In this document: positions 31,157 to 32,510 of the stretch, piece by piece
Position numbering within the stretch: the stretch's first letter is position 1
Layout of the letters: each line of letters opens with the position of its first letter
From: an uncultured delta proteobacterium
GTDB lineage: Bacteria > Desulfobacterota > Syntrophorhabdia > Syntrophorhabdales > WCHB1-27
Assembly (NCBI GenBank): GCA_963810935.1
Contig: CAWEPK010000010.1
Coordinates: 128,001 to 192,000, forward strand
DNA length: 64,000 nt
Direction of reading: 5' to 3'
The notes under the pieces: model-generated
What the model saw: only the letters and a program-made list of their open reading frames with translations
Database searches by the model: none
What the model was told of the DNA's origin: nothing
Translations under genes and position numbers: made by a program

Positions 31157-31332
31157 ACCCGACTCCGCGGCCTGCCCGGCGCTTTGCGATGAAAAACGGC
31201 CCGACGTAAGGAGGGAAGGGTCGCCTGGAGGTGGCGTTGAACCCGATTACTGCCGGAGCGAGCGCCGAGCGCGGCAGTAATAAAGCAAGCGTATGCGCCG
31301 CGCCGAGCAACTGTGTTCGATGTCAAGGCTTT

Positions 31333-32256
31333 TCATTGGGCGCACCAGGGGGTATTGGTCCTCATCATGGCATTCAGGATAACAACAAGTTTTCTCATAC
31401 AGGCGGTGATGGCAACCTTGGGGAGCTTGCCGGCATGAATGAGGCGTTCGTAAAAGGTCTTGATTATAGGGTTGTAGCGAATGGCCGAGAGGGCCGCCAT
31501 GTATAAGACTGCCCTTATATCGGCCCTGCCTCCGAAAATAGAGCGCCTTCCCTTAAACCTGCCGCTGTCCCGGTTGAAGGGCGCTAGACCCACGAGGGCA
31601 CTAATCTTTTTTCTATTGAGCTTACCTAGCTCGGGGAGCCGTGCAAGTAGTATGGAAGCGTTGACGGGGCCGATCCCCTTGACGCTTCTCAGCAGGTTCT
31701 CCTTTTCCCTCCATAAGGGAGTCTTCCGTATGAAGGACGAGATGTCCTTGTCCGTTTTCTTGATGCAGTCAGCCAGCCACTCGATATGGGCCTCTATATC
31801 GGGTCTTGTCCAATCGGAAGCGGTTTCCAGGCGGTTTCTCTCCATAGTCAGCATTTCGACGAGCTGCCTTCTCCTGGCAACGAAGCTCTGCAGCCGGTGG
31901 GCATCGCTGTCTTTGAGGGGCCTGGCTTCGGGTTTTATCGCTTCCGCGAAGCGGGCGATGATCTCCGCATCGATCGTATCGGTCTTGGCCAATCTTCCCG
32001 TTGCCTTCGCAAAGTCCCTTACCTGCCTGGGGTTTACCACCACTACGGGGAGTTTGCGTAAGGCCAGGGTTTCTACTACAGGTATCTGGTACCCTCCGGT
32101 GGCCTCCAGCACCACCAGCCCAGGGCGCGCATCTGAGAGGAACCGGCTGAGTTCCTTTCGTCCCTCATCATTGTTGAGGAAGCTCTTTTGCGTACCGGGC
32201 GTAATGAAGACTTCCAACGTATCCTTTGCCACATCGATGCCTGCGAACTTTTCCAC
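31333..32256 (-). CDS. IS110 family DEDD recombinase/transposase
   Basis: GIDVAK, LEATG, KTDTIDA (DEDD); GIGP, GLAP..RDSG catalytic Ser, AITACMRKL. Confidence 0.96.
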
Positions 32257-32257
32257 T

Positions 32258-32438
32258 ATCGCTCCTCCTTGCGAAATGCGGGCTCATGAGGCCCAAGCAA
32301 CTGTCCGAGCTTGTAGGGAATGGGGTGTGACGACCCGCGCTCGGCGCCGGGATCATATGTCCCAAGGGGGAATCGGCCTGTCACACCCTGATGCTTCCTG
32401 GGATAAGTATAGTCAGATGACAGCAGGTAAGAAAACAT
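32258..32438 (-). ncRNA. IS110 bridge RNA (target- and donor-binding loops)
   Basis: Stem GGGTGTGAC/GTCACACCC encloses ATTCCCCCT and GCGCCGAG; second loop carries ACAGTTGCT and CAAG; these match the element flanks and ends. Confidence 0.85.
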
Positions 32439-32510
32439 GCATATAAGATACAAGGGGGGAGGCTCCGCGGGCTTTGCCCGTGGAGGGGGCGCTGAGCCCC
32501 AATAATTGTT

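Follow-up and report, generated by a model that had tools for sequence, protein, structure and literature searches.

The 64,000-nucleotide stretch of DNA analysed here (the window), from an uncultured delta proteobacterium, carries at positions 31306-32454, on the minus strand, a 1149-bp IS110-type element with the dinucleotide CT at either border (1147 bp plus a 2-bp duplicated core). With a probability of about 0.9, we consider this element to be an intact IS110-group insertion sequence, mobilized, like IS621, by bridge-RNA-guided recombination. This reading is carried by the anatomy of the element, by its copies and their boundaries, by the covariation observed between its guides and the DNA that flanks it, by the covariation of its RNA stems and by the catalytic residues of its recombinase. 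The family of bridge recombinases was reportedly described in 2024.

Results

Boundaries and copies of the element

Read on the minus strand, the element starts with CT-TGTAT at 32454 and finishes with ACAGTTG-CT at 31314-31306. The left junction reads GGAGC CTCCCCC, CT, TGTATCTTATATG and the right one ACACAGTTG, CT, CGGCGCGGCGC; the bases beside the core are not the same at the two junctions, which limits the repeat to exactly 2 bp. A CT core at both junctions, with different neighbouring bases, is seen in every copy, and long terminal inverted repeats are not a feature of the element. Its non-coding ends comprise 196 bases before the gene and 25 after it, cores not counted.

The source genome is metagenome-assembled (4.06 Mb in 21 contigs, 93% complete and 7% contaminated). 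The 1149-bp stretch is found at 100% identity in three more places of this genome, one of which is truncated by a contig end, and one further copy, which we call the sister element, is present at 78% identity. Identity among the full copies stops precisely at the two CTs. These copies share short flanks, CCTCCCCC on the left and CGGCGCGGCGCAT.CGCTTGCTTTA on the right, and all four identical copies as well as the sister sit in one repeat that resembles repetitive extragenic palindromic (REP) sequences; outside this repeat, the three full copies have distinct unique flanks. When the flanks of each copy were rejoined around a single CT, they matched unoccupied copies of the repeat in an alignment that spans the junction (for the window copy, at 78 of 85 positions with one gap), indicating that the element consists of 1147 bp plus a duplicated CT and is inserted in a REP-like repeat. 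The 100% identity among copies points to recent spread and, judged from its sequence, the element is intact and recently active.

Contigs of four DNA sequencing runs were placed on positions 31100-32700. One contig of 1185 bases spans 31295-32463; its depth is about threefold that of a flanking contig, which is what a collapsed multi-copy element should give. Pieces of 174, 199 and 336 bases without differences are present in two other studies. Joints between the right end and the left end were absent from the contigs of the four runs, which thus give no evidence on a circular form either way. We also considered a set of 'skip' joints as a possible empty allele of the locus, and discounted them: their sides are short (19-39 bases), they were placed at 90% likeness, and they resemble other copies of the repeat.

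Guide sequences of the window copy

Four guides can be read in the left non-coding end (Table 1). The right target guide, GCGCCGAG, is the exact reverse complement of CT plus CGGCGC (8/8), and the left donor guide, ACAGTTGCT as DNA, repeats the right end plus core without change (9/9). The left target guide agrees with the left flank plus core at 7 of 9 positions by identity and at 8 of 9 when U-G wobbles are counted; over the flank itself, ATTCCCC faces CTCCCCC at 5/7, with a U-G wobble at position 3 and a mismatch at position 1. With U-G counted, 16 of the 17 target pairs are formed in the window copy. The right donor guide, AUUUCGCAAG, is read as CAAG facing CTTG, a G-T wobble, three looped-out bases, and AU facing the AT of TGTAT; the looped-out bases differ among relatives. 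The target guides therefore fit the left flank plus core (same sense) and the core plus right flank (antisense), and the donor guides fit the right end plus core and the core plus left end.

A preliminary description of this DNA had proposed the same borders and ends, and these hold: identical copies stop at both CTs, and the rejoined flanks match unoccupied repeats. It had also listed ATTCCCCCT (32373-32365), GCGCCGAG (32347-32340), ACAGTTGCT (32304-32296) and CAAG (32271-32268) as guides, and given the matches of the left donor guide, of the right target guide and of the left flank (5/7 plus one U-G wobble) as found here. All four strings are present, but CAAG is part of a longer right donor guide, the discontiguous AUUUCGCAAG (32277-32268), as in IS621. 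The comparison of other copies and empty sites that it proposed left the borders unchanged, and placed every copy in one REP-like repeat.

Guides change with the flanks in the sister element and in relatives

The sister element (L005, at G000:C8:756069-757216) has an intact open reading frame (ORF) and occupies the CT that lies 7 bp upstream in the same repeat, at GCGGAGC-CT-CCCCGC. Its right target guide, GCGGGGAG, fits CT plus CCCCGC at 8/8, and its left guide region, AUGAGCCUC, now contains GAGCCU; its donor guides, donor loop and both ends are the same as those of the window copy. An element of the same sister type (L066; 78-80% identity for the two sisters), from a genome of the same genus, is found at this repeat position too, the repeat copy there having another variant of the hairpin. 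As far as the sequences tell, the sister pair is a case of natural retargeting, in which the target loop was rewritten and the donor loop left unchanged.

A deltaproteobacterial relative whose protein is 81% identical is inserted at CTCGCCC-CT-TGGGGG and carries the guides AUCGCCCCU and CCCCCAAG; its right end and left donor guide are both changed to ACGGTTG. Nine copies of a 54% relative were fetched from a Desulfovibrionaceae assembly, with the common target ..ATGC-CT-CCGGCGG, the right guide GCCGGAG, and ACCGTTG in right end and left donor guide alike. The right ends ACAGTTG, ACGGTTG, ACCGTTG and ACAGCTG are thus each mirrored by a left donor guide with the same changes.

These correspondences were evaluated in an all-against-all control on 17 elements, which is structure-free and scores each target or donor string by its best ungapped match in every left end. 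Mean best matches were higher for cognate than for non-cognate pairs in the right target guide (6.9 vs 5.7), the left target guide (7.1 vs 5.9) and the left donor guide (7.9 vs 7.0), and for each of the three guides the observed cognate sum was reached by none of 20,000 shuffles of the assignments. For the right target guide, 8/8 matches were confined to cognate pairs (5 of 17, against 0 of 272 non-cognate pairs), indicating that the correspondence between guide and flank is more than chance.

The handshake bases, which stand next to the right guides (Table 1), likewise vary with the opposite DNA. The one in the donor loop is able to pair with target position 7 in 14 of 17 elements, a count reached by 16 of 20,000 shuffles, with A:T and U:A pairs besides G:C, and the one in the target loop with donor position 7 in 13 of 17. 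Pairing of the handshake base with its cognate DNA is seen in 3 of 17 elements for each loop. Handshake pairing with the non-cognate position 7 is given as an experimental rule for IS621 in the relevant passage of PMC11208158.

In one relative, from the Vicinamibacterales (L024:2140-2165), the right flank is a tandem CTATCGTC-CTATCGTC, and the guides fit its second unit better than the junction used. The right end of L026 is ambiguous by one base.

Architecture of the predicted bridge RNA

Minimum-energy and centroid folds of the left end both display the target loop, composed of a 9-bp stem, an internal loop and a closing hairpin. The donor module reads, in order, GCUC, GG, ACAGUUGCU, U, the hairpin GGGC-CUCAUGA-GCCC, G-C, AUUUCGCAAG, GA, G and GAGC, such that two internal loops, each enclosed by a stem and capped by a hairpin, are present in the left end. 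RNAalifold, run on five sequences (the window copy and four relatives), gave 32 consensus pairs, 12 of which have changes on both sides; in the underlying MAFFT alignment, the 3' strand of the donor stem is misaligned in L007 and L011. The program closed part of the donor loop (UUGC/GCAA), and the open donor loop as drawn here thus follows IS621 and not the prediction.

The linker before the donor loop contains TACAAG (32310-32315, minus strand), a contiguous complement of CT plus TGTA that extends to 7/7 in the sister. We considered it as the true right donor guide and rejected it, as it is contiguous with the basal stem, is broken in L006 and is absent from distant relatives. Its complementarity is probably an inherited chance.

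Table 1. Coordinates of the element and its parts in the window.
Feature	Position	Strand	Basis
Whole element	31306..32454	minus	Three further copies 100% identical exactly from border to border
Left CT core	32453..32454	minus	Read from sequence
Right CT core	31306..31307	minus	Read from sequence
Left target flank CTCCCCC, part of REP-like repeat	32455..32461	minus	Sequence and copies
Right target flank CGGCGC, part of REP-like repeat	31300..31305	minus	Sequence and copies
Left non-coding end encoding the predicted bridge RNA	32257..32452	minus	Sequence, folds
Right non-coding end, 25 bases, stop codon to core	31308..31332	minus	Sequence
Predicted target-binding loop: outer stem GGGUGUGAC/GUCACACCC (9 bp), bulged A, GGCC/GGUC, internal loop, hairpin	32322..32388	minus	Folds; outer stem with double-sided changes in relatives
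Left target guide AUUCCCCCU (ATTCCCCCT as DNA), 5' side of internal loop	32365..32373	minus	Sequence, all-against-all control
Target-loop hairpin GGGA-CAUAUGA-UCCC	32349..32363	minus	GGGA/UCCC becomes GAAC/GUUC in L007
Right target guide GCGCCGAG, 3' side of internal loop	32340..32347	minus	Sequence, all-against-all control
Target-loop handshake dinucleotide CG; C able to pair with donor position 7 G	32338..32339	minus	IS621 rule, handshake count
Predicted donor-binding loop: basal stem GCUC/GAGC, internal loop, hairpin GGGC-CUCAUGA-GCCC	32261..32310	minus	Folds
Left donor guide ACAGUUGCU (ACAGTTGCT as DNA), equal to right end plus core	32296..32304	minus	Sequence, all-against-all control
Right donor guide AUUUCGCAAG	32268..32277	minus	Sequence read against the description of the IS621 structure
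Donor-loop handshake dinucleotide GA; G able to pair with target position 7 C	32266..32267	minus	IS621 rule, handshake count
Shine-Dalgarno sequence AGGAGG	32264..32269	minus	Inside donor-loop 3' strand, overlapping right donor guide and handshake bases
Recombinase gene, 307 amino acids, GTG start	31333..32256	minus	ORF, Pfam, alignment
TTGACA, candidate -35 of junction promoter, 13 bases from core	31321..31326	minus	By eye
TATCTT, candidate -10; promoter formed only on end joining	32445..32450	minus	By eye

The recombinase

The GTG that opens the recombinase ORF is preceded by AAGGAGGAG. The encoded protein matches Pfam PF01548 (DEDD_Tnp_IS110; 3.1e-24, residues 5-145) and PF02371 (Transposase_20; 2.9e-18, residues 187-270). 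A phmmer search against solved structures gave matches to only two proteins, ISCro4 (4.7e-42) and IS621 (8.2e-40), over residues 4-306. Residues D8, E51, D93, D96 and S231 align opposite residues 13, 62, 104, 107 and 243 of the IS621 chain; these correspond to D11, E60, D102, D105 and S241 of the composite active site, as stated in the passage of PMC11208158 devoted to it. The ORF is intact and all five catalytic residues are present in all copies. The exact protein cluster has seven members, none of them named.

Landing sites in the REP-like repeat

The repeat is composite, measures about 80 bases and is present in about 95 copies genome-wide; in the window it lies at 32455-32510 and 31230-31305. 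Its left module occurs 95 times at one mismatch or fewer, and its right module 56 times exactly. The layout comprises a hairpin GGGGC-TCA-GCGCCCC, a second hairpin, GGAGCC-TCCCC(G/C)-CT-CGGCGC...GCTTGCTTTA and, often, another palindromic module. The arms of the second hairpin covary between copies, and a few bases separate this hairpin from the left target half. A search of two unoccupied repeat copies against Rfam gave sub-threshold matches only.

The natural sites used, CTCCCCC-CT-CGGCGC, represent one variant of the repeat. When wobbles are counted, a single site in the genome gives 17/17 pairs and 15 sites give 16/17, like the occupied type. The 17/17 site, ACCCCCC-CT-CGGCGC in one repeat copy, is empty, and two empty sites with the same 15-mer as the occupied type remain. 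The majority variant, CTCCCCG-CT-CGGCGC, reaches 15/17 with its mismatch beside the core, and all 28 of its 28 copies are unoccupied at that CT; one of these copies flanks the insertion of the sister, 7 bp upstream. Elsewhere in the window, outside any copy of the repeat, ATTCCCC-CT-CGGCCC (about 21919-21933, plus strand) fits the left guide at 9/9 and the right guide at 7/8, and is empty.

Candidate promoters and ribosome-binding site

When the two ends are joined by eye across right end, CT and left end, TTGACA and TATCTT are separated by 17 bases, and most of the relatives displayed have a TTGAC about as far from the core in their right ends. According to a passage of PMC11208160, members of the family rebuild a sigma-70 promoter when their ends are joined, the right end supplying the -35 box. 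In an otherwise variable stretch, TATACT (32406-32411, minus strand) is conserved some 15 bases ahead of the target-loop stem; its counterpart is TATAAT in L005, L066 and L070 and TATACT in L067. This sequence may act as an internal -10 through which the integrated copy is expressed; a matching -35 was not seen.

The position of AGGAGG within the 3' strand of the donor loop implies that folding of the RNA or binding of the protein could mask it. The more distant L007, L012 and L024 have a separate ribosome-binding site after the loop.

Neighbouring genes

The element begins 57 bases past the stop codon of a 703-amino-acid ORF (32511-34622), which, judged by its sequence, is taken to encode a glycogen-debranching-type enzyme. 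On the other side, a 112-amino-acid ORF (30818-31156) converges on the element, and a 1314-amino-acid ORF lies upstream of the region, at 26797-30741 on the plus strand.

Comparison with known systems

The element shares with IS621 of Escherichia coli (PDB 8WT6 and related) both Pfam domains, the aligned D/E/D/D/S residues and the CT core. The left ends of both are ordered as target loop, 11-base linker and donor loop, with a 9-base left guide, and each module follows the order stem, linker, left guide, linker, stem-loop, linker and right guide, with a bulged A in the stem. In both, the right donor guide is discontiguous and ends in GCAAG, and the right donor half is TGTAT, that of IS621 being taken from the numbering in the paper. 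A passage of PMC11208158 describes the IS621 right donor guide, as seen by cryo-electron microscopy, as A157-U158 paired, U159 and U160 flipped, then G161 and C162-G165.

The two systems differ in their targets, CTCCCCC-CT-CGGCGC here and ATCAGGC-CT-AC in IS621, in the right target guide, which has 8 matching bases here and 4 in IS621, and in donor positions 6-7 (TG here, AT in IS621). The right donor guide loops out three bases here and two in IS621, and the basal donor stem is shorter here and has the ribosome-binding site inside. The homology of the proteins is distant (phmmer E 8.2e-40), with 307 amino acids here against 326 in IS621 (solved chain, 328). The best match among solved structures is the ISCro4 transposase (PDB 9T56; E 4.7e-42 over residues 4-306), whose chain has 341 amino acids.

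Members of the family, IS621 included, are known to insert into REP-type repeats, according to a passage of PMC11208160. For ISPpu10 and ISPpu9 of Pseudomonas putida, the portions of 10.64898/2026.03.19.712850 and PMC12288879 that treat their sites place every insertion in one conserved intergenic REP-like repeat, in which a stem-loop lies immediately 5' of the target. A covarying hairpin also stands a few bases before the left target half here, whereas the sequences are unrelated to those of our element as far as compared. Elements of the IS1111 group have a recombinase of the same family and share the RNA-guided logic, but their guide RNA is encoded 3' of the gene, while here it lies 5'.

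The element would work like IS621; it shows every feature of membership that could be tested, and its layout is an expected property of the family, of which thousands of orthologues have been surveyed. The preliminary description was right to see the IS621 bridge-RNA layout here: the RNA has two loops with compensatory changes in its stems, and the protein family and catalytic residues fit. It was also right that the target differs from that of IS621, but the sites used are CTCCCCC-CT-CGGCGC and not the ATTCCCC-CT-CGGCG that it predicted. As for the recombinase being 'compact', 307 amino acids lie at the low end of the published family range of about 300-460 (given in a passage of PMC11208160), so the word is true, although the size is not exceptional.

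Discussion

By homology with IS621, the element would be mobilized through a circle, a junction promoter, a bridge RNA, a cleavage chemistry and a programmable target choice of the same kind. The recombinase would excise the element as a circle, giving the joined sequence ACAGTTG-CT-TGTAT, and this junction would set the right-end TTGACA 17 bases from the left-end TATCTT, leading to transcription of the left end. The RNA would then fold into a target loop and a donor loop. The donor loop would bind the circle junction, with AUUUCGCAAG pairing discontiguously with the top strand of CT-TGTAT, and the target loop would bind the REP-like repeat. A recombinase tetramer would cut beside the CT cores, using S231 and the DEDD site, and strand exchange would follow; the handshake C (32339) and G (32267) may assist by pairing with position 7 of the opposite DNA.

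A number of observations weigh against a bridge-RNA-guided element. The left target guide has its position-1 mismatch at every occupied site and needs a wobble at position 3; the conserved A at position 1, kept in most relatives, may not pair. Three sites that are one plain mismatch away from the 15-mer predicted by the guides are unoccupied, among them the ATTCCCC-CT-CGGCCC of the window. Among the relatives, the right target guide of L011 and L013 fits only about 3 bases in a by-eye reading, and in the sister and L024 the core-pairing CU is two bases away from the hairpin that follows it instead of one. In L067 (71%, same family; 1451-1710 and 2615-2704), the left guide fits at 1/7 at the left junction; its right guide fits at 8/8, its left donor guide covaries, and a 6-base match to the left guide occurs 5 bases further upstream, the bases between resembling its own right end; this insertion may be aberrant or half-matched. 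The borders of most relatives were taken from conserved end motifs and not from empty sites, and the automatic guide locator, whose calls underlie the handshake counts given above, was wrong in about 6 of 17 elements (L011, L012, L013, L014, L026 and L029), where a by-eye fit was better. The preliminary description had also suggested folding the left end and comparing it with covariance models. The folds contain the target loop and the consensus has two loops, but the single-sequence fold energy is not better than that of shuffles (z = 0.45), and Rfam, at a permissive threshold over 31000-32800, gave no match to a bridge-RNA family (Rfam 15 may hold none) and only chance-level hits to sR15 and ylbH. 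Finally, a simple promoter scan of the linear copy found none, the junction promoter being read by eye only, and no RNA run containing the element is listed among the sequencing runs.

The lack of such an RNA run and of a significant single-sequence fold would suit a genuine IS110-family insertion sequence whose left-end matches are subterminal repeats recognised by protein, or remnants of target duplication, and not RNA guides; the left donor guide and the right end indeed form a plain direct repeat in DNA. We regard this as very improbable, since the right target guide complements DNA that lies outside the element and varies with that flank both in the sister and among relatives, pairing in the stems around the guides is maintained by double-sided changes, and the homology of the protein to IS621 and ISCro4, both solved with bridge RNA, spans its entire length. 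It is somewhat less improbable, but still quite unlikely, that the bridge-RNA layout belongs to an immobile relic, copied together with the repeat by other means, such as duplication or collapse of the assembly. The genome is metagenome-assembled with 7% contamination, one copy is cut at a contig end, and public contigs collapse the element to a single piece of about 1185 bases; these features fit a relic, but the three full copies have different unique flanks past the repeat, the ORF and the five catalytic residues are intact in all copies, whose 100% identity suggests recent spread, and two empty sites identical to the occupied 15-mer remain. Membership of the IS1111 group, in which the guide RNA (seekRNA) lies downstream of the recombinase gene, has next to no credence in our view: the two Pfam domains are the same, but the 25 non-coding bases after the stop, against 196 before the start, leave no room for such an RNA, and both guide loops are upstream.

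Within the preferred reading of a mobile, bridge-RNA-guided element, two further suggestions can be made, which we hold jointly as tentative and put well short of an even chance: that the sisters partition the REP-like repeat, and that the ribosome-binding site in the donor loop makes the element autoregulatory. According to the former, same-genus sisters would split the repeat by inserting at sites 7 bp apart with only the target loop rewritten, each sister being tuned to its own repeat variant, CCCCC-CT or CCCCG-CT; if true, this would be a natural record of stepwise reprogramming. According to the latter, the bridge RNA, once folded or bound by the recombinase, would keep the same transcript from being translated into more recombinase. 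If so, the clade would have a built-in switch, which is not described in the passages of PMC11208158 and PMC11208160 that bear on this study.

For the annotation of this genome, the element accounts for four identical repeats that break the assembly, and about 95 REP-like repeats are identified as the landing pads of the four identical elements. The current picture of the mechanism of the family is unaltered. Thousands of orthologues are said to be listed in the supplementary tables of Durrant et al., and this element or its close relatives may already be among them. It adds a small (307 amino acids), apparently active bridge recombinase to the candidates for programmable DNA insertion, its attraction being a fully readable set of guides and a long, 8-base right target guide. 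The sister pair, within one genome, offers a clean natural example that only the target loop need change for a new address.

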